DNA of 64,000 bases from Lachnospiraceae bacterium (GTDB taxonomy: Bacteria; Bacillota; Clostridia; Lachnospirales; Lachnospiraceae): positions 1,195 to 65,194 of the forward strand of contig CAAGMZ010000018.1 of assembly GCA_900771195.1 (NCBI GenBank), given 5' to 3'. The position numbers and the translations under genes were made by a program. Below, in pieces: positions 1-11,115 of the stretch; the first letter of the stretch is position 1, and every line of letters starts with the position of its first letter. The notes under the pieces are model-generated. The model made no database searches. It was given only the letters and a program-made list of their open reading frames with translations, and was not told where the DNA came from.

Positions 1-1089
1 ACATCTGTGCATTTCATCAAAAGTATCAGCAATCTGTGTCAGGAGCAGCACCAGATCTCTGAACGAAGGTTTTTCCTCATTCAGATAGTTTCTCATATCT
101 TTTCCGTCAATGTATTCCATGACTATATATTTGGTGCCGTTTTCCGAAAAAGCATCTATCACTTTAGGGATATTTTTGCATTTGATGTCAACATTACACA
201 GGTTCTGTTTTTCCAGATCATACAGTGGGTCACTTATGTTTTTTATACTGTTCGTATCACTTCTGTACTCCTTAATCGCAACATCTCTGTTACGCAGGCC
301 CGTCTGTGAACACAAATATACCCTGCTGCTTCCTCCTTCTCCGGACAAAAGTTTTTTTACAATGTATTTTCCGTGCTGTAGGCTATCTCCCTCACTGACA
401 AGAGTATTCTCCACGTTCTCTACATCTTCATCATCAATCACACCTATGATAACAAGATATTGAATTAATGTATCGAATATGTTGCGAATTTTCCCGTAAT
501 TATCCTCACCTTCCGATAAAAATTCATTTGCAAACATTGTTCTGGTCTGGTGAGCACGAATATTTCTGAATTTTATCCTTATCTCATCAAAATAATGATA
601 TTGTATTCCATTAATCAGCCTAAGATTAAAAACACCGTTAAATGCATAATTAAAGCCTTTTCCCAAATCCACATCATCAAAGCTGTTATGAATGTCATTC
701 TCGTATTCTGAGGGTCTTACGTATATTATACGAAATTTATCCCATTTTGTTTTCTGAATTTTGGGTCGGTACTTAATAAGATCTTTTCTTTCAGTCAGAC
801 CATGTATTAAAATATTATTATTCACTCTTTCAATAAGCTTGAACATCTCATCTACAGCATTACATGCATTTTCGATATCATCCTCTGCCGAATAAAGTTT
901 TCTGTATTCTTCTCTGCATTTTCTGATAATCTCAGATTTGTCATCATATATGTTATAGTCGTATTTTTTCTGACCATTAAGGACAGCTTCTTCCTGTATG
1001 GTATGTACAGCTTCATCATTAAGTTCTTCAAGTTCACAATTATATTTTTCCATAAGAGAATCTTCTCCATGATTTGTTAATAGTGACAT
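1..1089 (-). CDS. Hanks-type Ser/Thr protein kinase with N-terminal helical HEPN/DUF4145-like domain (runs off left edge)
   Basis: Manual translation: ATG at 1089, open to base 1 with no stop. Kinase motifs KYIVKKLLSGEGGSSRVY, VAIKEY, E of helix C, IPKVIDAF, YIVMEYIDG, LLTQIADTFDEMH. N-terminal part contains EIRIKFRNIRAH (RxxxxH). Absent from ORF track because the stop is outside the window. Confidence 0.85.
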   Translation of the reverse strand, partial: MSLLTNHGEDSLMEKYNCELEELNDEAVHTIQEEAVLNGQKKYDYNIYDDKSEIIRKCREEYRKLYSAEDDIENACNAVDEMFKLIERVNNNILIHGLTERKDLIKYRPKIQKTKWDKFRIIYVRPSEYENDIHNSFDDVDLGKGFNYAFNGVFNLRLINGIQYHYFDEIRIKFRNIRAHQTRTMFANEFLSEGEDNYGKIRNIFDTLIQYLVIIGVIDDEDVENVENTLVSEGDSLQHGKYIVKKLLSGEGGSSRVYLCSQTGLRNRDVAIKEYRSDTNSIKNISDPLYDLEKQNLCNVDIKCKNIPKVIDAFSENGTKYIVMEYIDGKDMRNYLNEEKPSFRDLVLLLTQIADTFDEMHRC

Positions 1090-1091
1090 AT

Positions 1092-1829
1092 CTACTGATG
1101 AAATCCGTATCCGTTACACTTTGGGCATGTAACAATAGTGCCTGCCGGAGCGTACCCGCTGCCGGCACAGCCGCTGCATATTGTGTAACCACCCTGCCAT
1201 CCCATATTTGCGTAGTAATAAAGATTAGGAACATACTGTTGTCCTGTTCCGCTGCAAAATGGGCATACAGTTTTCGTACTTGACTTTACAACGCCTTCAC
1301 CGGAACACTTCTTACACTTAAATGTCGGAAAATCATTTGCAACGCTACTGGTACCGGCGTACACATAATGCCCATCTGATTTCACTAATTCCCCCAATAC
1401 ACTTACATCTGGGTTGTTATCATCACAGCATGAAAAGAAAATTCTATTATCTGTTGCAGCATACACATGAAAGTCCCATTCTGTTTTGTCATCTATCCGG
1501 CAAGCCTCAATCCATTCACAAAACAGCTCCCGAAATTCTTCCCCGGTGTACCTTTCTATTTCTGTATTCCAACCATATGTACAAGCTTCGGTTGTCTTTT
1601 GTATCCAATTTAAGACATCTTTTTCTTTCTTGCTTCTGTTAAAAATCAATCCATAGCAGTCAAGAACAAAAATGCCTATAGCAATAACAACTACAGTAAC
1701 AAATACAGATACAAAAATGATTCGTCTTCTTTTGCCGTGAGTCTTAAGTCTCTCCGGCACCGGTTCACCACAATATGGACAGTAATCAGATGTACCATCA
1801 ATTTCCATTCCGCATTTATTACATTTCAT
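1092..1829 (-). CDS. Zinc-ribbon + single TM + C-terminal DnaJ-type Cys-rich (CxxCxGxG x4) protein
   Basis: N-terminal CNKC...CPYC, hydrophobic IIFVSVFVTVVVIAIGIFVL after a KRRR cluster, C-terminal CKKCSGEG, CPFCSGTG, CSGCAGSG, CPKCNGYG. Confidence 0.8.
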   Translation of the reverse strand: MKCNKCGMEIDGTSDYCPYCGEPVPERLKTHGKRRRIIFVSVFVTVVVIAIGIFVLDCYGLIFNRSKKEKDVLNWIQKTTEACTYGWNTEIERYTGEEFRELFCEWIEACRIDDKTEWDFHVYAATDNRIFFSCCDDNNPDVSVLGELVKSDGHYVYAGTSSVANDFPTFKCKKCSGEGVVKSSTKTVCPFCSGTGQQYVPNLYYYANMGWQGGYTICSGCAGSGYAPAGTIVTCPKCNGYGFHQ

Positions 1830-1853
1830 AAAGTTCTTTCTCCAATATTTAGT

Positions 1854-2525
1854 TTATTTTACAGTTATTTCATACTTGTTGTTATCAAATGCAGTAAATC
1901 CCTCAAATGTTATCTCACCACTTATTTTGCTCAATGAATTATACTGTTCCGGTGTAATCACATATGTAACAGTTCCGAATGAATTAGGAGCAATTTTTAT
2001 CATGCTTACGCTGGGATTGCTGAAAAAATCAAACTGTCCTGAAGCACCTGTGTCGAACACCATAAGCTGTGACTGCATCCATACAGAAGCGTTTTCACTG
2101 GTGTTATTGGTAACCTTAAGTGTAATCGTACAATTAGAAGCACTTCCTGTAAGTTCTATTACAGCGTCACCGCTTGGTGTGCTTGCAGACCCTGAATAGT
2201 CAATTGCACTTGGAGCAGGGGCTTCTGTTACTGCAGGTGCAGGTGCCTCTGTGACTACCGGTGCAGGTGCCTCTGTGACTACCGGTGTGGGTGCCTCTGT
2301 GACTACCGGTGTGGGTGCCTCCGTTATTTCGGATGCGGATGTTTCTTCTGACTTTGATTCAGCTGTATTTTCATTATTCCCTGAAGCCCCCGCATCCTTA
2401 AGTGCTGCAATCTCGCTCTCAAGTTCTGCTATTTTGTCTGCTGAATCATTCCTGCTTCCGCATCCGTTTAAAAATATAGCTGTCACCATTACTACAGCAA
2501 CGCCCAATAATAATTTTTTCTTCAT
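1854..2525 (-). CDS. Lipoprotein with Pro/Thr-rich repeat linker
   Basis: Signal MKKKLLLG...FLNGC lipobox, short coiled coil, TEAP(T/A)PVV repeats, beta-rich C-terminal domain; GGAG SD upstream. Confidence 0.8.
   Translation of the reverse strand: MKKKLLLGVAVVMVTAIFLNGCGSRNDSADKIAELESEIAALKDAGASGNNENTAESKSEETSASEITEAPTPVVTEAPTPVVTEAPAPVVTEAPAPAVTEAPAPSAIDYSGSASTPSGDAVIELTGSASNCTITLKVTNNTSENASVWMQSQLMVFDTGASGQFDFFSNPSVSMIKIAPNSFGTVTYVITPEQYNSLSKISGEITFEGFTAFDNNKYEITVK
2212..2328 (-). repeat. 24-bp coding tandem repeat (about 5 units, TEAPT/APVV)
   Basis: Repeated ggtgcctctgtgactaccggtg(c/t)(a/g) units on the + strand. Confidence 0.9.
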
Positions 2526-2557
2526 AAGCTGTTCTCTCCTATTTTTGCATAAGTGTA

Positions 2558-2614
2558 TAACCGTATACCGTTAGATTATCACTTTCGTTTAATCAAGTTA
2601 AGCGCGTACCGTTA
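2558..2614. promoter_or_regulatory. Pair of palindromic operator-like sites TAAC/G-N8-GTTA
   Basis: TAACCGTATACCGTTA (2558-2573) and TAAGCGCGTACCGTTA (2599-2614), each followed by ATTATCACT, lying between the divergent lipoprotein and XRE genes. Confidence 0.55.
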
Positions 2615-2675
2615 ATATTATCACTCAGATTAACATATACTTTCTATAAACATTAATAAATTATGGAGTTTAAGT

Positions 2676-2918
2676 ATGACCTATTCTGATGTTATCACCA
2701 AAAGGCTCAGAGAACTCTGTGCCCGAAAAAATTACACTGTTAATAAGCTTGCCACCCAAAGCGGGATAACGCAAAGCACTGTAGAAAATCTCATGTCAGG
2801 AAAAACAAGAAATCCGAAATTAAAAACACTCCACCGACTCGCAATAGGCCTTGATATGACATTATCCGAACTTCTTGATTTTCCCGAAATGAACAATACT
2901 AAATTTGATGACGAATGA
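2676..2918 (+). CDS. XRE/Cro-family helix-turn-helix regulator
   Basis: 80 aa, TVNKLATQSGITQSTVENLMSGKTRNPKLKTL HTH pattern, GGAG SD. Confidence 0.9.
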   Translation: MTYSDVITKRLRELCARKNYTVNKLATQSGITQSTVENLMSGKTRNPKLKTLHRLAIGLDMTLSELLDFPEMNNTKFDDE

Positions 2919-2993
2919 AGCATGTCTATTATTGAGTATGCTTTACTGAATACCATTTATCATCGGACTGATAAATATATTAATTTCACACCA

Positions 2994-3908
2994 CTATTCG
3001 AATTTGATATTGCATGAGCTGTTAACTTCACCCCACACAGCATTTCCTGTCATAACATACGAAGCGGGAACCATAACCGTATACATCATGCTTCCGTGCG
3101 GTTTAAGTGATGTATTAATATCTGTGGATACATTACATATCTTGCCATAACTGTCATCTGTCAATGAAACCGTGCAGGTTTTATAATAAATAGGAGAATC
3201 CGTACCATTTGCAAACCATAAATCTACATAAAGATTTCCGTCCGAATCCTGCCATGCAAATTTTACTGACGTATGCGTACATCCCTCAAAAACCGCGTTT
3301 TTATCTAAATACATACAACACCCTGCATCAAATGATGTTGCGTTAAGTCCATTATTAAAAGATTTCATAAGATCTTCCGGATAAACATTTGTACTTGTCA
3401 GTAATAAAGAGTTCAAATAACTTTCTGTTTCTTCATTTTCTTCTGCTTTCCACTCTCCGTTTTCGAAAGAAATAACAAAATTATAATTTAAAGACTCTAA
3501 TTTTGTATTTGGATGTTTACCGGCAACATTGTAATATGTGCCAGATATAGCATAATAATTATCAATTTTATATACTTGATTAAAAAGGGATTTTATAGTT
3601 TCTTCATCCGTATTGCGGAACAAATTTGCGAATGAAGCATAATCGGTCTGCGAATACTCTGCCATCTTATTCAGGATTTCTTTATAAGCCGAAACAGCAC
3701 ATTCATCGGTGATTTTTTCTATATCAGAATTTATTACTGATAAAGTTTTGTTTTCTTCATCTTTTTGCTCATGTGCAATTTGAGATTTATTTTCAGACGC
3801 CTGTGAAACTTCTGATTTCACTCCGCAAGCAGCAAGAGATATGGTCACTGCAAGGCAAAGCAATGCAGCTACGATTTTAATTAAATGTCTTTTTAATGTA
3901 ATGTTCAT
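2994..3908 (-). CDS. Putative lipoprotein of unknown function
   Basis: Signal peptide ending SLAAC, GGAGG SD, beta-rich C-terminal domain. Confidence 0.75.
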   Translation of the reverse strand: MNITLKRHLIKIVAALLCLAVTISLAACGVKSEVSQASENKSQIAHEQKDEENKTLSVINSDIEKITDECAVSAYKEILNKMAEYSQTDYASFANLFRNTDEETIKSLFNQVYKIDNYYAISGTYYNVAGKHPNTKLESLNYNFVISFENGEWKAEENEETESYLNSLLLTSTNVYPEDLMKSFNNGLNATSFDAGCCMYLDKNAVFEGCTHTSVKFAWQDSDGNLYVDLWFANGTDSPIYYKTCTVSLTDDSYGKICNVSTDINTSLKPHGSMMYTVMVPASYVMTGNAVWGEVNSSCNIKFE

Positions 3909-3945
3909 ATTGATTTCCTCCTAAATAAGCCTTTTATACAATTTT

Positions 3946-4032
3946 CTATTCACCTGTAAATTCTTTGTTCTCGCGATGCCTCTTTAAGTTCTTTCCTGCA
4001 ACTTCCATATCATACTCAGGTCCATACAACAT
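3946..4032 (-). pseudogene. Truncated duplicate of the 5' end of the XRE gene at 5464..5697
   Basis: Translates MLYGPEYDMEVAGKNLKRHRENKEFTGE* versus MMYRPEYDMEVVGKNLKRLRENKELTVEE; 67/78 nt identical by manual alignment. Confidence 0.85.
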
Positions 4033-4554
4033 TTAAAGGTATTGTTTCTTTTTCTCGTTGTACTCATCCTGAGTAATTGCGCCCATGTCAAGCAATTCCT
4101 TGAGTCTCTTTATGTTGTCGAATTTTACATCATCTTCCGTCATCTGCTTTTTAGTATTCTCTTCAGCTTTTTGTTTTGCTTCATATTCTGCACTCCATTC
4201 TTTAGTTCTTCCACATACGCATGTCCCAGTATATGACGGATTAATGTTACCACAGTAACATTTCCAGCCACCGTCATTTAATAATTTTTGGATTCTTGCC
4301 TCTGCTTCCTCTTTTTCCATCGCTTCAACAGCAGAAGATAAAGGCGTTGTTCCGTCGCCGCTATGTGTATTATATACATCACAATATTCATTCCGGGGGT
4401 ATAAAAGAGCAACTAAGAAAGCAACAAATCCAAAAAAGAACCCCCACCAGAACCAGTTATCTGCATATCCTTTTTTGGTTATGACAGCATCAGTTGCAAA
4501 TCCCCATACCACATTCAATATAATATTCATAATTGCAATTGCTACAAAATCCAT
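4033..4554 (-). CDS. Membrane protein with Zn-ribbon and C-terminal SHOCT domain
   Basis: Two N-terminal hydrophobic segments (WFWWGFFFG), WKCYCG...CVCG, C-terminal IKRLKELLDMGAITQDEYNEKKKQYL (SHOCT pattern). Confidence 0.85.
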   Translation of the reverse strand: MDFVAIAIMNIILNVVWGFATDAVITKKGYADNWFWWGFFFGFVAFLVALLYPRNEYCDVYNTHSGDGTTPLSSAVEAMEKEEAEARIQKLLNDGGWKCYCGNINPSYTGTCVCGRTKEWSAEYEAKQKAEENTKKQMTEDDVKFDNIKRLKELLDMGAITQDEYNEKKKQYL

Positions 4555-4662
4555 ACTAAATTTCTTCCTTCCTGATATTTATTATTCAACACTTTAGTGA
4601 ATTTCTGATAATCTTGAAATCAGCCATCTCAATGGTTTTCTTCATCGCTGTGTAACACATTG

Positions 4663-4691
4663 ATTATACCTTACCGATTACCGGTTGTCAT
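4663..4691 (-). promoter_or_regulatory. sigmaA-like promoter for the SHOCT gene
   Basis: Minus strand ATGACA-17 bp-TATAAT. Confidence 0.5.
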
Positions 4692-4710
4692 TGAACTGAT
4701 GGTTGAAATA

Positions 4711-5418
4711 TTATCTCTTATTACATCTTAGAATAAATTTCATTAAAACATTTACTACTGTCTGTACAAGAAATACTGCCAATAACCACGGAATCATAAG
4801 AACCAGCATATTATATACCACATCCCATAAAAAACCATCACTGTTGAGCCTGACGAACCCCTCACCCAATAATTTGCCAATGTAATATCTTCTGTTGATA
4901 AACACATACACCAGAGAAACCAGGCCAAAAAGTATTGTAGTTATTACGGTTATTTTATTCGCAACATATTCTCTTTTTCTCTTTTTTTCTTCTTTTCTCT
5001 TTTTCCGGTGAAGTCTTAACTGCTCGTCCATGCTAACCTGCTCAATTTTTATACCGCCATATGTATTCATATAGTCGTGATATTCCTGTGTCAGTAAACA
5101 GGTGATTTCACTTATGTCGCATTTATCTGCATCTCTCACACTGTGAATCACAGGATTGGTAAGCATTCTGATTCTGTGATAAGCATTCTGACTGTTGTAT
5201 GAAATAAGATTATGGTTATAGCACTCATCAATCATGTCTATCAAATCAGCCCTGTTTCCATCTCCGGTTTCCACATTCACCTTAACTCCGTGAGTTTTCA
5301 GCAATGAACCGGTAAAATGCTGTATAAGTCTTCTTGCAAGATAACATGCCTCCGAATATGTGTCCTCATTTTCTGAATATCCTAAAAATCTCTTAAATTC
5401 TCTGTCTATCGTTTCCAT
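4711..5418 (-). CDS. DUF4145 (HEPN-like) domain protein with two C-terminal TM helices
   Basis: LIDMIDECYNHNLIS...AYHRIRMLTNPVIH matches the DUF4145 pattern, followed by a basic stretch and two hydrophobic helices. Confidence 0.7.
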   Translation of the reverse strand: METIDREFKRFLGYSENEDTYSEACYLARRLIQHFTGSLLKTHGVKVNVETGDGNRADLIDMIDECYNHNLISYNSQNAYHRIRMLTNPVIHSVRDADKCDISEITCLLTQEYHDYMNTYGGIKIEQVSMDEQLRLHRKKRKEEKKRKREYVANKITVITTILFGLVSLVYVFINRRYYIGKLLGEGFVRLNSDGFLWDVVYNMLVLMIPWLLAVFLVQTVVNVLMKFILRCNKR

Positions 5419-5463
5419 AACATTATCCCTTTCTGTACTCAGTTATTTTTATCAGTCATCTTT

Positions 5464-5697
5464 TTACTCATTTGTCTCTTCCACGATGTCCTCTACGCTT
5501 GCTCCGTATAACTGCATCAACGCAAACATCGTGTCCGCCTGGGGATAGCTTTCGCCTCTCTCGTACTTGTAAACTGCCTGTACTGAGCCAAGTCTAAGAT
5601 ATTCCCTCACTTCCTCCACTGTAAGCTCCTTGTTCTCGCGGAGCCTCTTTAAGTTCTTTCCTACTACTTCCATATCATATTCAGGTCTGTACATCAT
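5464..5697 (-). CDS. XRE-family HTH regulator
   Basis: GKNLKRLRE...TVEEVREYL...VQAVYKYERGESYP; GGAGG SD. Confidence 0.9.
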   Translation of the reverse strand: MMYRPEYDMEVVGKNLKRLRENKELTVEEVREYLRLGSVQAVYKYERGESYPQADTMFALMQLYGASVEDIVEETNE

Positions 5698-5734
5698 TTG
5701 AAATTCCTCCCTTTTTTGTTTTTCTACTTACAAA

Positions 5735-5760
5735 GACGAAAGGATTTCAAAAAGGTTCAT
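5735..5760 (-). promoter_or_regulatory. ECF-sigma-type promoter
   Basis: Minus strand aTGAAC-N16-CGTC, matching the Firmicute ECF consensus (AAC-N16-CGT). Confidence 0.5.
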
Positions 5761-5902
5761 TTTTTCAGAAAATTTTTTATATTTTTTCCTCCTCATGTTT
5801 TAATCATAATACGGTAATATAGATTTGTCATTTAACCGCCAGTTTACTTCCTATATATTAATAGGGCTGATTTGGGAAGAACTTAACATTTTCAACAAAA
5901 AA

Positions 5903-5976
5903 GGCTGTAAAATAATTATTTTACGGCATTTTCCCGCAGGTAAGCCAGGAATGCCCGAAATAATTATTTTACAGCC
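5903..5976. repeat. REP/MITE-like hairpin (GGCTGTAAAA...TTTTACAGCC family); also a likely terminator
   Basis: 19-bp perfect inverted arms GGCTGTAAAATAATTATTT / AAATAATTATTTTACAGCC with an inner GC stem. Confidence 0.75.
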
Positions 5977-6005
5977 GGTGAAGCTGTGCTCGTATCGTAT
6001 TGTAT

Positions 6006-7700
6006 TTATCCTATAAGAACTTTTTTCCCTTCAAATGCAAAGCCGTACTTCCTTATATGTTCCTCCGGCACTCCGTCCGCAATAAGCGAAGCCGCATATT
6101 TTCTGTCTTCAATCTGTGCAAGTGCTGTCTGAACAGTATCCTCAAGTGATTTTTCCTTCTGTGAATCGTACACCTTGAATTCAAGAATATAGGCATTGTC
6201 TTTATTGACGTCTTTGGGCTTAAGCATCACATCGTACCTGCCAAGCCCGCTTTCACGGTTAGATGTGATGTTATAACGGTCTGACAGCTCTGCAATAAGT
6301 CCAAGCACAAAACCATGATAAAACGACTCGCTCTGGTTCCTCATACCGTTTTTTCCCGAGTCAAAATAACTGAATGTGTTCAGCGCAACATCGTTCATAT
6401 ATGCATTCATTGACTCCGTATCGCATGCGAGCAGGGCATTTATGAACATGTTGTATGAACCGTCGCCATCATCAAACCAGTCAAGAATCATGTAACGGAA
6501 CATCCGCCTGACCTCACGGTTAGTAAGCGCAAGTTCATACCTGGGAAGTTCATCACACAGGATATCCTCGTTATCTTCTTTACTGACAACCTTTAGATAC
6601 CCGCTGGCAAGAAGAAGACTGTATACGGCATCCCTTCTGCTGTCCAGCTGATTATATACTATCTGCTCATCTATCCTGCATTCAATGCTCAGTCCTTTCA
6701 TAAGCCTCTCGAAATTGCTCTTGACTTCGGAAGAGCTTTTGCGTATCAGCCTGCCAACAAGACTGTTAGAGCTTGTGTTTGCCCAATAGGTATCTATTTT
6801 GCCTTTATCAAGAAAATTGATTATTGACCATGGATTGTATATGTCGCTGTGGTTTCCGAATGTAAAACCATCATACCATTCTTTCACCTTATATTTCCTG
6901 TCAGAATATCCATACTCATCAAGGGCATCAAAAACCTCCTCCTGTGTGAACCCGAAGGCTGTCGCATACTCATCAGAAGTGGTCGTTACCACATTAAGAT
7001 TATTAAGGTCTGAAAACATTGATTCTCTGCTGACTCTTGTTATTCCGGTCATAACAGCCCTTTCCAGAAATGGATTTGCCTTAAATGTGGAATTGAAAAG
7101 GCTCCTTGTAAAAGCAGCAAGTTCATCCCAGTATCCCTCCGCATAAGCTTCCTGCATCGGAGTATCATACTCATCAAGAAGAATTATTACTTTTTTGCCA
7201 TAATAACGGCAGAGATAATCTGAAAGCTGATATAATGCCATCGGCGCATTTTTTTCACTCATACGGGCTTTCATCATGTTAAAATAATTAACTTCGTCTG
7301 CCGAAAGGCAACCGCTTTCAGTAAGGAACGAATTCTTCTCGTAAAGCTTCATAAGAAGCTGGCATATACGATAACATGTGGTATCATAGTCTTTTTCCTT
7401 TATGTTGGCAAATGACAGAAATATTACCGGATAAGTTCCCTGCAACTCCCTGTATTTTTCATTATTCCATATTGAAAGCCCGTGAAAAAGCCCGCCCCTG
7501 TCTGCATAATCATTTGAAAAGAATGCCTCAAGCATACTCATGTTAAGAGTTTTTCCAAAACGTCTCGGACGGGTTATGAGCGTGACTTCGTCTCCGCTTT
7601 CCCACCATTCTCTGATAAAATCAGTTTTATCCACATAGAAATGGTTTTCTTCTCTCAGCTTTTCAAAACTCTGTATTCCTATTGCTACATTATTTTTCAC
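6006..7700 (-). CDS. AAA-ATPase-like + PD-(D/E)xK nuclease (DUF1703-type) protein
   Basis: Walker A RPRRFGKT, Walker B ILLDEYD, C-terminal ESFYHG...SNRESGLGRYD...ILEFK...ALAQI...Y. Confidence 0.92.
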   Translation of the reverse strand: MKNNVAIGIQSFEKLREENHFYVDKTDFIREWWESGDEVTLITRPRRFGKTLNMSMLEAFFSNDYADRGGLFHGLSIWNNEKYRELQGTYPVIFLSFANIKEKDYDTTCYRICQLLMKLYEKNSFLTESGCLSADEVNYFNMMKARMSEKNAPMALYQLSDYLCRYYGKKVIILLDEYDTPMQEAYAEGYWDELAAFTRSLFNSTFKANPFLERAVMTGITRVSRESMFSDLNNLNVVTTTSDEYATAFGFTQEEVFDALDEYGYSDRKYKVKEWYDGFTFGNHSDIYNPWSIINFLDKGKIDTYWANTSSNSLVGRLIRKSSSEVKSNFERLMKGLSIECRIDEQIVYNQLDSRRDAVYSLLLASGYLKVVSKEDNEDILCDELPRYELALTNREVRRMFRYMILDWFDDGDGSYNMFINALLACDTESMNAYMNDVALNTFSYFDSGKNGMRNQSESFYHGFVLGLIAELSDRYNITSNRESGLGRYDVMLKPKDVNKDNAYILEFKVYDSQKEKSLEDTVQTALAQIEDRKYAASLIADGVPEEHIRKYGFAFEGKKVLIG

Positions 7701-7828
7701 GATAATCTCCCTTCATGCCTGAATCCGCCATACAACCTCTCTACCTGCAGTATAACGAATTTAATGCCAAAAGGCAAGTCACCATATTACCAACAATCTT
7801 CACCATTAATATCGTCCGGAATCCCGTA

Positions 7829-8650
7829 TCAGAAATCAAAGCTGTCCGGGTCAGCCCCGACTCTTTCATTCCTGTTCAGTTCCGATATCATCCTCATATC
7901 TTCCCCCGAAAGTTCCCAGTCAAACACATCCATATTCGACAGAATTCTGTCCCTGTGTGTGGATTTGGGCATTACGATGACGCCTCTCTGGATATCCCAT
8001 CTGATAATTATCTGTGCGGGTGTCTTTTGGTATTTTGCCGCAAGGCTCTTAATCGTATCATCCAAAAGGACATTGTTGCCTCCCGTTCCGCCAAGCGGGC
8101 TCCACACCTCAATATCAATATTCTGACCCAGACAATAATCGATAAGCTCCTGATTGGTAAAATAAGGATGTGACTCTATCTGGTTGACCGCCGGCTTTAT
8201 GTGGGCATTTTTCATCAGCGTTTCAAGGTGATGCACCTGGAAATTGGAAACTCCGATTGCCTTAGCCCTTCCGCTCTCGTATATTTTCTCCATTTCCTCC
8301 CAGGACTTCTCGTAACCGTCTGCCGGCCAGTGAATCAGGTACAAATCCACATAATCGGTATCAAGAGCTTCAAGGCTTCGCTTAAATGCTTCTTGTGCCC
8401 TGCCCTGTCTGATGTCCTCATTCCAGAGCTTTGTGGTGATAAAAATATCTTTTCTGGGCACGCCGCTTTCTTTTATTCCCTGTGCCACACTTTTTTCGTT
8501 GCCGTAAATCATTGCGGTGTCAATGTGACGGTAGCCGGCTTCAAGTGCCCATTTTACTGATTTTGCGGTCTCCTCACCGTCCTTAGTAAGGTACACGCCC
8601 AGGCCAAGCTGCGGAATCACTGCACCGTTATTGAGCCTAATACTGTTCAT
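7829..8650 (-). CDS. Aldo/keto reductase (2,5-diketo-D-gluconate/glyoxal reductase-like)
   Basis: GYRHIDTAMIYGNE, ITTKLW, LYLIHWP, IGVSNF, MPKS; start adjusted to MNSIRL after GGAGG. Confidence 0.95.
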   Translation of the reverse strand: MNSIRLNNGAVIPQLGLGVYLTKDGEETAKSVKWALEAGYRHIDTAMIYGNEKSVAQGIKESGVPRKDIFITTKLWNEDIRQGRAQEAFKRSLEALDTDYVDLYLIHWPADGYEKSWEEMEKIYESGRAKAIGVSNFQVHHLETLMKNAHIKPAVNQIESHPYFTNQELIDYCLGQNIDIEVWSPLGGTGGNNVLLDDTIKSLAAKYQKTPAQIIIRWDIQRGVIVMPKSTHRDRILSNMDVFDWELSGEDMRMISELNRNERVGADPDSFDF

Positions 8651-8735
8651 GGTATATTCCTCCGAAATCTTTTGAAAACAGTATAGCAAATATGTTGTTG
8701 AACATCAATATTTCAATTTATTGTGGATTGTAGGG

Positions 8736-8833
8736 GGACTATTCTGGCTTGCTTGGGATTTTTGTCCGTAATATTTCGCTGCCATTCGCTTAGTAAGCGG
8801 AAGCGCCCGGCCTCAACTAACTGTTTCACAGCC
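8736..8833. repeat. Degenerate copy of the hairpin element at 9191..9317
   Basis: 8794-8833 aligns ungapped to 9278-9317 at 29/40 nt (manual count); similar 5' end ggactatt..ttgctt. Confidence 0.55.
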
Positions 8834-8838
8834 GCACT

Positions 8839-9126
8839 TAAGATAAAATCATGAAATTACATTATCTTATCGGTGTTTTTGAGACCTGTTCAGGGCAATT
8901 AAAAATCATGTTCAGATAATATACGAAGTTAGTAGTTATCTTATCTGAATTTTTCTGTCATTCTGGCAGGATTTCATCAAAAAAAGACTTGAGGAAGCTT
9001 CGAACAATGCAAAAAGTAAGATAAATATATAAACATTCGGCGAAATTATCTTATCAAAGTAAAATGTGGTATATTCAAAGATACAAATCATAAGATAAAA
9101 GGCTGAAATCTCAAAAAACTATCTGA
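8839..9126. repeat. Array of four spaced inverted repeats (T(A/C)AGATAA-N15..21-TTATCT)
   Basis: Units start at 8839, 8912, 9017, 9091 (spacings 73, 105, 74); internal spacers are unrelated to each other. Confidence 0.7.
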
Positions 9127-9190
9127 AACCGGAACACATCTATTGAATAACCCACAGTTTCTTCAAGCTCTTTCCGGCTCATACCATGCA

Positions 9191-9317
9191 GGCTATAAAA
9201 TGATTGCTTTCGGCGATTTCTAAGAACGCCGGTGCTTAGCGAGGTCTTTTCGAGCTTAGCACCGTTGCGTTCTTAGCTAAGCGAAAGCGACCGACCGAAA
9301 ATAATCATTTTACAGTC
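9191..9317. repeat. Nested long hairpin, REP/MITE-like
   Basis: Outer arms ctataaaatgattgctttcgg / ccgaaaataatcattttacag; inner arms ctaagaacgccggtgcttagc / gcttagcaccgttgcgttcttag. Confidence 0.8.
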
Positions 9318-9364
9318 CCTTCTCCCCGTAAAGTCTTATCAGCAGTTCTATGATATATTCCTCA

Positions 9365-9393
9365 GTATTCATTCCGTCAATTCCTCATATATT
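9365..9393 (+). promoter_or_regulatory. Putative mother-cell sigmaE-type promoter of the recombinase
   Basis: GTATTCA-14 bp-CATATATT, 33 nt before the ATG; resembles the sigmaE/sigmaK -10 CATAnnnT. Confidence 0.4.
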
Positions 9394-9426
9394 GTTTTGT
9401 AAAGCTTATTCAAAAGGATTTCTATT

Positions 9427-10689
9427 ATGATAAGATGTGCTTTATATGACCGCGTCTCCACTGCAATCCAGGTGCGCGACGGTCTCTCCCTTGATGCCCA
9501 GCGCAAGGCTCTGATTTCATACGCCAACGCCCATGGCTATCGGATTGTAGGAATATACACCGACGAAGGCATTTCCGCCAGAAAAAACAAAGAGAGCCGC
9601 CGCGAGCTCATGCGGCTTCTCTCCGATGTACAGAAGGACCTGATTGACCTGATTCTGGTGACAAAGCTTGACAGATGGTTCCGCAATATCAAGGATTACC
9701 ACAATACCCAGGCGATACTCGAAGCACATAACTGCAACTGGAAAACCATATTTGAGCAGTACGACACTTCCACCTCCAACGGACGCTTTGCCATCAACAT
9801 CATGCTTTCAGTCAATGAAAATGAATGTGACCGCGACTCTGACCGAATCAAAGAAGTATTCCGTTACAAAATTTCCGACGGCCAGTGGCTTGGCGGCCGC
9901 CCACCCTTCGGCTACAGACGCGATGACACCAGCCATCTCGTCAAGGATGCCGATAAAGAGCACATAGTCAATGAGCTCTTCTCCCTCTGCCTGTCATCAG
10001 GTTCCAAAACTTACGCTGCTGACTGCATACACAACAAATATCTTTCCGATGCACCACAGATATCAGGCCTCCGCAAGATTTTTTCAAAGGAAATTTACAC
10101 AGGCGTCCGCAATGGTGCCCGCATATGTGAACCGTACATAACCTCTGAGCAATATAACCTGATTAATTCCGGGCGTTCACTTCATATTGCCGAAAAAAAT
10201 ATTTACATATTCAGCGGTCTCCTTAAATGCCCGATATGTGGGCGAACAATGACCGGGCACAGCCGGAGTGTGAACGACAGAACATACCGTTCATACCGTT
10301 GCGGTAATTTCGGCCACAGCTTTTCACGCCGGGAAAACCTCATAGAAAAAAATCTTCTGGATAGCCTTGTGTTGCCCATAAAACGCACTATCCGGATACA
10401 GTTGCCGCATTCCCATACCCGGATTCAGAATGAGCTTTCCCGCCTCAATATCCTTTTCCAGAAAGGAAGGATATCAGAAGAATACTACGAAAAAGAGTAT
10501 TCAAGACTTCATGACAGGCTATCCGTTTCCCCTGCTTCGGAAAAGGAATTTACCGGCACTGCCGCAGAGCTTTACTATTCACTTGACGAATACCATAAGC
10601 TTATTTTCTGGCGAAGCCTCCTTGATTACGCCACAGTGAACAAAGACGGCCATACGGATTACCATTTAAAGGATTTTTGCCCCCCGTAA
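9427..10689 (+). CDS. Large serine recombinase (resolvase + recombinase + Zn-ribbon domains)
   Basis: Catalytic YDRVST, DEGISA, KLDRWFR, GGRPPFGY, FSGLLKCPICG...YRC. Confidence 0.95.
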   Translation: MIRCALYDRVSTAIQVRDGLSLDAQRKALISYANAHGYRIVGIYTDEGISARKNKESRRELMRLLSDVQKDLIDLILVTKLDRWFRNIKDYHNTQAILEAHNCNWKTIFEQYDTSTSNGRFAINIMLSVNENECDRDSDRIKEVFRYKISDGQWLGGRPPFGYRRDDTSHLVKDADKEHIVNELFSLCLSSGSKTYAADCIHNKYLSDAPQISGLRKIFSKEIYTGVRNGARICEPYITSEQYNLINSGRSLHIAEKNIYIFSGLLKCPICGRTMTGHSRSVNDRTYRSYRCGNFGHSFSRRENLIEKNLLDSLVLPIKRTIRIQLPHSHTRIQNELSRLNILFQKGRISEEYYEKEYSRLHDRLSVSPASEKEFTGTAAELYYSLDEYHKLIFWRSLLDYATVNKDGHTDYHLKDFCPP

Positions 10690-10715
10690 TACCCCTTCTC
10701 TGTTGAATTCGAGCC
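10670..10715. other. Putative attachment junction (att hybrid site)
   Basis: Abrupt switch from recombinase stop (TAA 10687-10689) to mid-gene SBP coding sequence ttc tct gtt gaa ttc gag (FSVEFE) at about 10696. Confidence 0.55.
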
Positions 10716-11115
10716 AGGTGCAACCGCCCTTGAGCTTGAAGGAAAAGGATATGTAGTTGCCTCGCTGGGCGTTGACAGCGGCTATGTCCCTTATACCGCA
10801 TACAGTGCCAGAAAGAGCTACATTAAGAAAAATCCCGAGGTCATCAAGAGCTTTACCAATGCTATCCAGAAGGGTCTTGATTATGTGAACACCCACAGTT
10901 CCGCAGAAATTGCAGAGGTAATTAAACCGCAGTTTGACGACACCGACGTGAAAACTATTGAAATAATAGTTGAAAGATATAAGACCCAGGATACATGGAA
11001 AAAAGATACCGTATTTGAGAAAGAAGCTTTTGAGCTGCTGGAGGATATACTGATTGAAGCAGGCGAGCTGGAAAAATATGTGCCTTATGAAGACCTGGTT
11101 ATGATTGTAAAATAA
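10696..11115 (+). pseudogene. 3' half of an interrupted NMT1/THI5 (YtlA-like) ABC substrate-binding protein gene
   Basis: Frame reads FSVEFEPGATALELEGKGYVVASLGVDSGYVPYTAYSARKSYIKKNPEVIKSFTNAIQKGLDYVNTHS...RYKTQDTW...YEDLV*, with no start codon, SD or signal peptide at its 5' end; the frame itself is intact. Confidence 0.8.

Follow-up and report, generated by a model that had tools for sequence, protein, structure and literature searches.

The DNA analysed here (the window) is a stretch of 64 000 nucleotides corresponding to C18:1195-65194 of its assembly, and all positions given below are those of the whole window. It carries an ORF on the forward strand (9427-10689, 420 aa) which a sequence-only reading had taken for a large serine recombinase ending in a TAA at 10687-10689, and this was borne out by a profile search in which Resolvase (E 4.6e-29) and Zn_ribbon_recom domains both scored above cut-off. 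The protein matched the PHROG 95 integrases (E 9e-84) and displayed the architecture of a large serine recombinase, with a Resolvase domain and a zinc ribbon, while the middle domain missed Pfam PF07508. It aligned over its full length with relatives and with PHROG 95, had a coiled coil about 25-30 aa shorter, and kept 98 of the 105 residues that are invariant in 14 relatives. A pattern AT-N17-CATAnnnT at 9365-9393 (+) is a predicted, candidate sigmaE-type promoter of this gene. Such sigmaE-like patterns were found in 14 of 46 recombinase leaders; shuffles gave 1.6, and of 1101 ORF leaders in the host genome 35 had one. A sigma70 scan stayed at chance level. Further upstream, at 9171-9322, lies a hairpin-forming repeat of about 150 bp, MITE- or REP-like, of which the genome has 14 or more other copies at 74-92% identity.

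The recombinase stop is followed by a frame (10690-11115, +) that is open for 141 codons, for which the chance of meeting no stop is about 6e-4, and whose first possible start is an internal GTG at 10885. The sequence-only reading began a start-less half gene six bases past the stop; the missing start and the open frame to 11115 stood, but the F and S codons at 10696-10701 belong to the attachment-site arm and host sequence begins at 10702. The 137 codons from 10702 to 11115 (+) constitute the 3' half, at its native locus, of a gene for a YtlA-like substrate-binding protein of the NMT1/THI5 family. As that reading had recognized, the frame encodes the C-terminal half of such a protein: it matches NMT1 and corresponds to residues 186-325 of the intact 325-aa orthologues, to which it is 81-82% identical, in two genomes of the same genus (G001 and G002), and yhfC-like and hslO genes follow it as they do in these uninterrupted relatives. 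The YtlA label, which we take over as an assumption from the sequence-only reading, fits the NMT1 family, the sigmaK-type promoter described below and an intact ytlCD-like ATPase-permease pair elsewhere in the genome (contig C30), unlinked to the split gene. The half gene had been described as undecayed, and indeed it has no stops and no changes at 57 near-invariant columns, with pN 0.12 against a saturated pS of about 0.70 to the nearest orthologues, substitution patterns which indicate that it is under purifying selection. Eleven of its residues depart from the consensus, against five in G001.

The boundary between the two could be placed from related sites, using a fixed-register comparison that, with further regions, covered 16 attL and 19 attR sites. 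The element-side (P) arm of attR, a 10-bp outer motif plus a 13-bp inner spacer, occupies 10679-10701 (+) in the register given by 18 other attR and the 16 attL sites. The crossover dinucleotide GT at 10702-10703 (+) lies at the centre of the inverted repeat of 12 reconstructed attP sites and forms the first two bases of the Val codon in a D(F/Y)T-VEFEP motif. The window attR agrees with the clade consensus of the outer motif, GGTGYAGTAW, at 3 of 10 positions, the poorest fit seen. Codon 419 of the recombinase (10681-10683), which lies inside this arm, encodes Pro here and Thr in 10 of the 13 full-length variants listed, so the arm is polymorphic in the lineage. By these comparisons the window contains attR of a serine-recombinase element, lying within a conserved gene of the NMT1 family; as in skin-like elements, a host coding sequence is interrupted and a serine recombinase stands at one end.

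Positions 1-9364 would form the interior of the element, which continues off the contig. Only 1194 bp of the contig lie to the left of the window, and it breaks off there in an 18-nt tandem repeat; the element is thus at least 11.9 kb long with its left end unassembled, in line with the size of more than 10.7 kb proposed earlier. Its ORFs encode a kinase, three lipoprotein-like proteins, the products of two HTH genes, a SHOCT protein, a DUF4145 protein, an AAA-ATPase/PD-(D/E)XK protein and an aldo-keto reductase, and no virion or lysis genes were seen among the 11 ORFs scanned in the visible part, the rest being off-contig. The interior has a GC content of mostly 0.34-0.42, the contig one of 0.43. 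Two ORFs of the cargo, at 1854-2525 of the window and at C18:1-409, are lipoprotein-like and contain Pro/Val/Thr tandem repeats; one of them causes the contig break.

The host assembly (1.8 Mb) is 78.8% complete with 0.06% contamination. The 5' half, which the sequence-only reading expected to find to the left, had no match in it by tblastn with 30 orthologues, short-word tblastn or hmmsearch --max, which recovered only two paralogues, and attL of the window element is likewise absent from this 78.8%-complete assembly. Scans of the genome with att-arm patterns gave loose matches, 132 and 24 in number; none of them follows ytlA-like codons, and they are chance matches. Synteny from G001 and G002 did not locate the left flank, and no contig end of the assembly continues C18. 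Outside the host, 7996 longer proteins were scored without yielding a full-length target allele above 82% identity, the 22 same-genus genomes searched contained no close DNA relative of the element, and 23 metagenome and 6 viral loci gave no match above 62% identity over at least 240 residues; the exact junction pattern was absent from viral contigs. The prfA gene is 79-91% identical across the genus and singled out no sister genome.

Relatives of the element offered an opportunity to examine the complete site. Recombinases 39-51% identical over most of their length were found at 15 loci, nine of which adjoin pieces of the same gene. The proposed restoration of an in-frame gene through a short shared core held in 12 of 12 relative pairs at this site, while the window's own attL lies outside the assembly. 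The core is GT, or AT in the case of G181, and the join falls in the conserved D(F/Y)T-VEFEP motif. The rebuilt attP reads GGTGYAGTAW-N13-core-N13-WTACTRCACC, and in 10 of the 12 pairs its outer repeat matches at 9-10 of 10 positions. Two further attL/attR pairs were missed by the motif search and joined separately; L048 and L055/L131, the latter with a broken recombinase next to sigH, were left aside as ambiguous. A joined attP follows the recombinase in metagenome contigs L110 and L115, and a viral contig of 42.8 kb has one too; in its left arm and its small-ORF region this contig is equal to integrated L127. The crossover centre is the same in the joined attP of L110 and of L138/L139 and in a published pair (cluster770, below). 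The relatives thus identify the window-site integrases as a temperate-phage clade whose attB is centred on a Val codon. Joined attP sites in phage and metagenome contigs are equally explained by an ordinary phage cycle.

Both element orientations occur at the window's site, and element sizes there range from about 2 kb (G152) to 48 kb (G103); ORFs of the latter we take to be terminase, tail and lysis genes. Some of the elements are prophages, others free phage-type contigs in which attP is joined, and others again remnants of 2-3 kb that keep the recombinase and a small conserved ORF; the 2-kb remnants retain both att ends as well. At L116, L117 and L120, host pS was 0.01-0.02 and integrase pS 0.3-0.48, so near-identical hosts carry different integrase alleles; many insertions are therefore recent, and conservation of the gene halves there says little. 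Genome G020 (L037, L038) carries an intact gene together with an attR junction whose 3' half belongs to another allele (68% DNA identity). It was rejected as evidence of excision since its two copies are different alleles, which suggests a chimeric bin or transfer, and it establishes that orphan junctions exist.

In a quick recombinase tree, in which L066 was represented by a wrong recombinase and four labelled rows were lost, the window recombinase grouped with L041 and L134, integrases matched to its site, and its branch was long (1.32, the median being 0.24). Its divergence lies mainly in the DNA-binding domains, which are 32-36% identical to those of relatives, whereas relatives share 42-46% among themselves. 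Its 90% cluster has 22 members, one labelled Butyrivibrio sp., and 13 of the 15 members listed are full length (420 aa). Among the members listed, none of 49 variable positions falls on the 114 clade-conserved positions, a distribution which indicates that the recombinase is under purifying selection. Because no virion genes are in view, the recombinase is conserved across strains and no close intact allele was found, the element of the window lineage looks domesticated. The data fit an element fixed in its lineage, with recombinase and att arm having drifted together, and the window element may be in early decay.

Genomic proxies connect the target with sporulation. Among the family genomes, spoIVA was present in 210 of 212 carriers of the target, and the target was missing from 130 of 132 spoIVA-less genomes, counts in which kin are not independent; 40 of 41 broken cases carry spoIVA, and 58 of 268 spoIVA-bearing genomes are without the target gene. 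A pattern with the consensus letters of sigmaK promoters, AC-N16-18-MATAnnnT, lies upstream of 27 of the 28 intact genes and 30 of the 33 split ones (57 of 61), against 36 of 1101 other ORFs; this and the box patterns below were written after inspecting the sequences, and kin are not independent. The C-versus-T rule for the pattern is the one given in section 14 of PMC517825. Mother-cell expression of B. subtilis ytlA, put forward in the sequence-only reading, agrees with the list in PMC3416734, where ytlA, ytlC and ytlD stand under sigmaK. That reading took the host for a spore-former, and it has spoIVA and sigK-, sigE- and sigG-type genes (assigned by score and gene order), with an unbroken sigK. 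From spoIVA co-occurrence and the sigmaK-type promoter the target would be a mother-cell gene.

Other genes of this kind are also hit. Close sister integrases lie in a gene that we presume to be sleC-like and cortex-lytic, one piece of which matches SpoIID (L042, L043 and L111 at one site, L047 at another), and this is a target switch within one integrase clade. The host spoIIID is itself split (G000:C6:17944-18057 and G000:C33:3232-5190, L146), with a 9-bp shared repeat through which it rejoins to 83 aa; a 606-aa serine recombinase abuts its 3' half, and contigs C6 and C33 both end in transposase-like ORFs. A prophage-like end with a 530-aa serine recombinase was seen at G000:C1:24089-29530 (L147).

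The single case from which this work started is part of a family-wide hotspot. The survey covered 400 family genomes with a completeness of 85% or more: the intact protein had matches in 235, and the 212 with E <1e-20 were defined as carriers. The target was broken or fragmentary in 41 of the 212 (about one in five), a figure obtained by re-searching 49 carriers chosen for weak or multiple matches, eight of which proved intact, so that breaks near the gene ends may be missed in the other 163. In the first 80 carriers the target was split in 11 and hslO, a single and hence thin control gene, in none (Fisher p 7e-4); the N-terminal domain of spoIVA was matched twice in no more than 2 of 268 genomes. 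Breaks cluster at residues ~68, 91, 144, 190 (the window's site) and 245, a recombinase adjoins most junctions, and the recombinase lineages differ per site. All 28 split genes fetched (26 of the 41 plus G012 and L052; the other 15 were classed by coordinates only) gave stop-free frames spanning the reference from residue 1-3 to residue 330-337. The junction search selected stop-free local joins, and the informative features are the shared cores and the lack of stops or shifts inside the pieces; exact cores in G070, G337, the first join of G333 and the second of G307 are weak repeats called automatically and are not trusted. G333 holds the gene in four pieces, and G173, G307, G331, G343 and L052 hold it in three.

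At the residue-144 site (L091 in G337, G199, G221; P0155, P0172) the recombinase reads in frame into the 3' part of the target, giving a fusion of 811-829 aa, whose cluster has 260 members, one named from Clostridium symbiosum. For the inducible R. gnavus phage RG-TP1 (L141, PQ571303.1), an integration site is predicted by its grouping among the residue-68 integrases and by an attP that matches theirs. L129, L137, L136/L054 and L140 (phage contigs and phiCD27) carry related integrases, and their attP-like repeats have CT or TT at the centre.

A family of 38-55-aa ORFs, in most cases oriented divergently to the recombinase, has members in 17 elements, besides three weaker hits, and is kept in 2-3 kb elements; it gave no useful match in PHROGs, PDB or Pfam. 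CATAnnnT is present in 16 of 20 small-ORF leaders (1.9 expected), and an ACA-centred box lies 8-14 nt before CATA in 17 of 20 (0.3 expected). The combination of ACA box and CATA occurs in 19 of 1606 ORF leaders of the host genome, among them those of spoIIIAA- and spoIIID-like genes. This box resembles the SpoIIID box KRTAACARK before CD1234 of C. difficile, the skinCd factor controlled by sigmaE/SpoIIID in the account of PMC5025042. The unrelated integrase clade at residue 144 has a small ORF of its own, with CATAnnnT in 11 of 14 hits against 1.95 expected. The conserved small protein of the first family is likely to be a directionality factor, and we treat both families as candidates. In the visible part of the window element no candidate factor and no member of the residue-144 family was seen, and the first family was sought genome-wide in the 78.8%-complete assembly without a match. 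In one 2.8-kb element a protein with a Spo0A C-terminal domain is encoded beside the small ORF (L066:1714-2226).

Taken together, the window element is probably skin-like, its recombinase excising it in the sporulating mother cell and so rebuilding the target gene, a timing that we infer. The small ORF would act as the directionality factor, switched on by sigmaE/sigmaK with the SpoIIID-like box, and its presence in the mother cell would let the recombinase join attL and attR, the element leaving as a circle. Recombination of attL and attR at the shared dinucleotide, in the attB centred on a Val codon used by the phage integrase clade, restores the frame in relatives and would do so here. Excision would be confined to the mother cell, which lyses, so that the spore would keep the split form; the predicted sigmaK promoter would then drive the rejoined full-length gene, and the rebuilt lipoprotein may work with the intact ytlCD-like ATPase and permease of C30. 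The earlier claim of skin-like excision is thus upheld as regards an attR in a conserved gene, in-frame joins in relatives and a sporulation link, but not as regards the 5' half and attL. The reading is tempered by the absence of these two and of a directionality-factor gene from the assembly, by the outer arm of attR (3 of 10) and the long branch of the recombinase, and by the sigmaE-like pattern being carried by only 14 of 46 recombinase leaders. On balance we also lean, with less assurance, towards a wider reading, in which a late mother-cell transporter gene of spore-forming Lachnospiraceae would be a hub of programmed rearrangement, entered independently by at least five phage integrase lineages, with up to three elements stacked in single genomes and four pieces resolved by serial excisions, and with timing set by small directionality factors, hitherto undescribed and carried even by free phages, under sigmaE/sigmaK and SpoIIID.

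It could be envisaged instead that phages merely favour a conserved, growth-silent gene as a safe harbour, that lysogens lose its function, that excision follows ordinary induction only and that the window holds a prophage remnant with cargo. Active phages do use these sites (L138, and RG-TP1 with its site-68 integrase relatives and matching attP), turnover in near-identical hosts is rapid, and the 58 of 268 spoIVA-bearing genomes without the gene indicate that it is dispensable for some spore-formers. However, safe harbour does not sit well with mother-cell-type promoters before two unrelated small-ORF families, with 2-kb remnants that retain both att ends, recombinase and small ORF, with genes in three or four pieces that stay stop-free, or with a window-lineage recombinase conserved over the 13 full-length variants listed, and we regard this explanation as unlikely. 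We hold it quite improbable that the locus is a dead relic or an assembly artefact, with the 5' half lost or the junction derived from another genome and the 3' half yet to decay. The absent 5' half, the atypical att arm and the orphan junction of G020 speak for it, but the assembly is incomplete, little contaminated and broken in a tandem repeat inside the element, the 3' half sits in its native neighbourhood with 0 of 57 conserved residues changed, the ytlCD-like partners are intact, and no full-length allele above 82% appeared among the 7996 proteins against 22 members of the recombinase cluster. A reversible vegetative switch of the Listeria comK type, toggling a nutrient importer in growth or stress, deserves very little credence, for although serine-integrase elements can act in this way (described in PMC13492144) and a binding protein could serve in growth, the target has a sigmaK-type promoter and is almost confined to spore-formers.

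Should mother-cell excision be correct, developmental DNA excision would be a common trait of gut commensals (about one fifth of sampled carriers), beyond a few Bacillus and Clostridium strains, and genes currently classed as pseudogenes would be working ones. A role of the transporter in spore formation would be suggested by the convergent targeting, integration sites would be named for isolated gut phages such as RG-TP1, and the 2-kb elements would be natural AND-gate cassettes. The survey would further yield many sets of integrase, att sites and candidate directionality factor, which are scarce and wanted for genome engineering.

A close parallel is skin in sigK (SpoIVCA/Skr in B. subtilis; CD1231 and CD1234 of skinCd in C. 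difficile), described in PMC5025042 and PMC6957869 as having a large serine recombinase by one att end, a split mother-cell gene, a small partner ORF behind a sigmaE/SpoIIID-type promoter and shrinkage to remnants. In contrast to skin, the target here is a transporter subunit and not a sigma factor, sigK being unbroken in the host genome; five or more sites and several integrase lineages occur in one gene, and the small ORF is without a Pfam, PHROG or PDB match. SPbeta in spsM and phi3T in kamA, with their cryptic remnants, form a similar continuum from active phage to remnant at one mother-cell-gene attB in the accounts of PMC4191935 and PMC6957869, whereas the phages here are small, siphovirus-sized Lachnospiraceae phages (36-48 kb) with another target and both orientations at one site. 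Non-phage cargo in sporulation genes, as described for gin (gerE), vfbin (spoVFB), vrin (spoVR), yin (yabG) and split cotJC and spoIIID in PMC5595907 and bioRxiv 2022.02.25.481979, is a further likeness, and a split spoIIID recurs in the host genome; unlike the hotspot, each of these is a single element in a few strains.

The same integrase clade, attB codons and attP inverted repeat are found in LSR cluster770 (NZ_MEHB01000021.1) of Durrant et al. 2022 (PMC10083194, supplementary file 3, row 856), a row that lists a phage integrase without a target-gene name or a sporulation link. As this att pair was already published, the anatomy is independently confirmed and the site itself is not new. 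The nearest NCBIfam model was XisF, of the heterocyst type, far below cut-off. The heterocyst elements of cyanobacteria can number several per gene. Those in nifD, fdxN and hupL are likewise excised in a terminal cell type, as recounted in PMC6957869, but in another phylum and with other targets and regulators. In a full-text literature search that took in the supplements of PMC10083194 and PMC6957869, neither ytlA nor an ABC binding protein was named as the target of such elements, although tables elsewhere could list one. According to PMC11466899, YtlA itself is the binding component of a type I importer that also comprises YtlC and YtlD, its substrate in B. subtilis being listed as unknown. 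Set beside these systems, what is new here is the target in Lachnospiraceae, the frequency with which it is split, its five or more sites, its division into up to four pieces and the two families of candidate factors.
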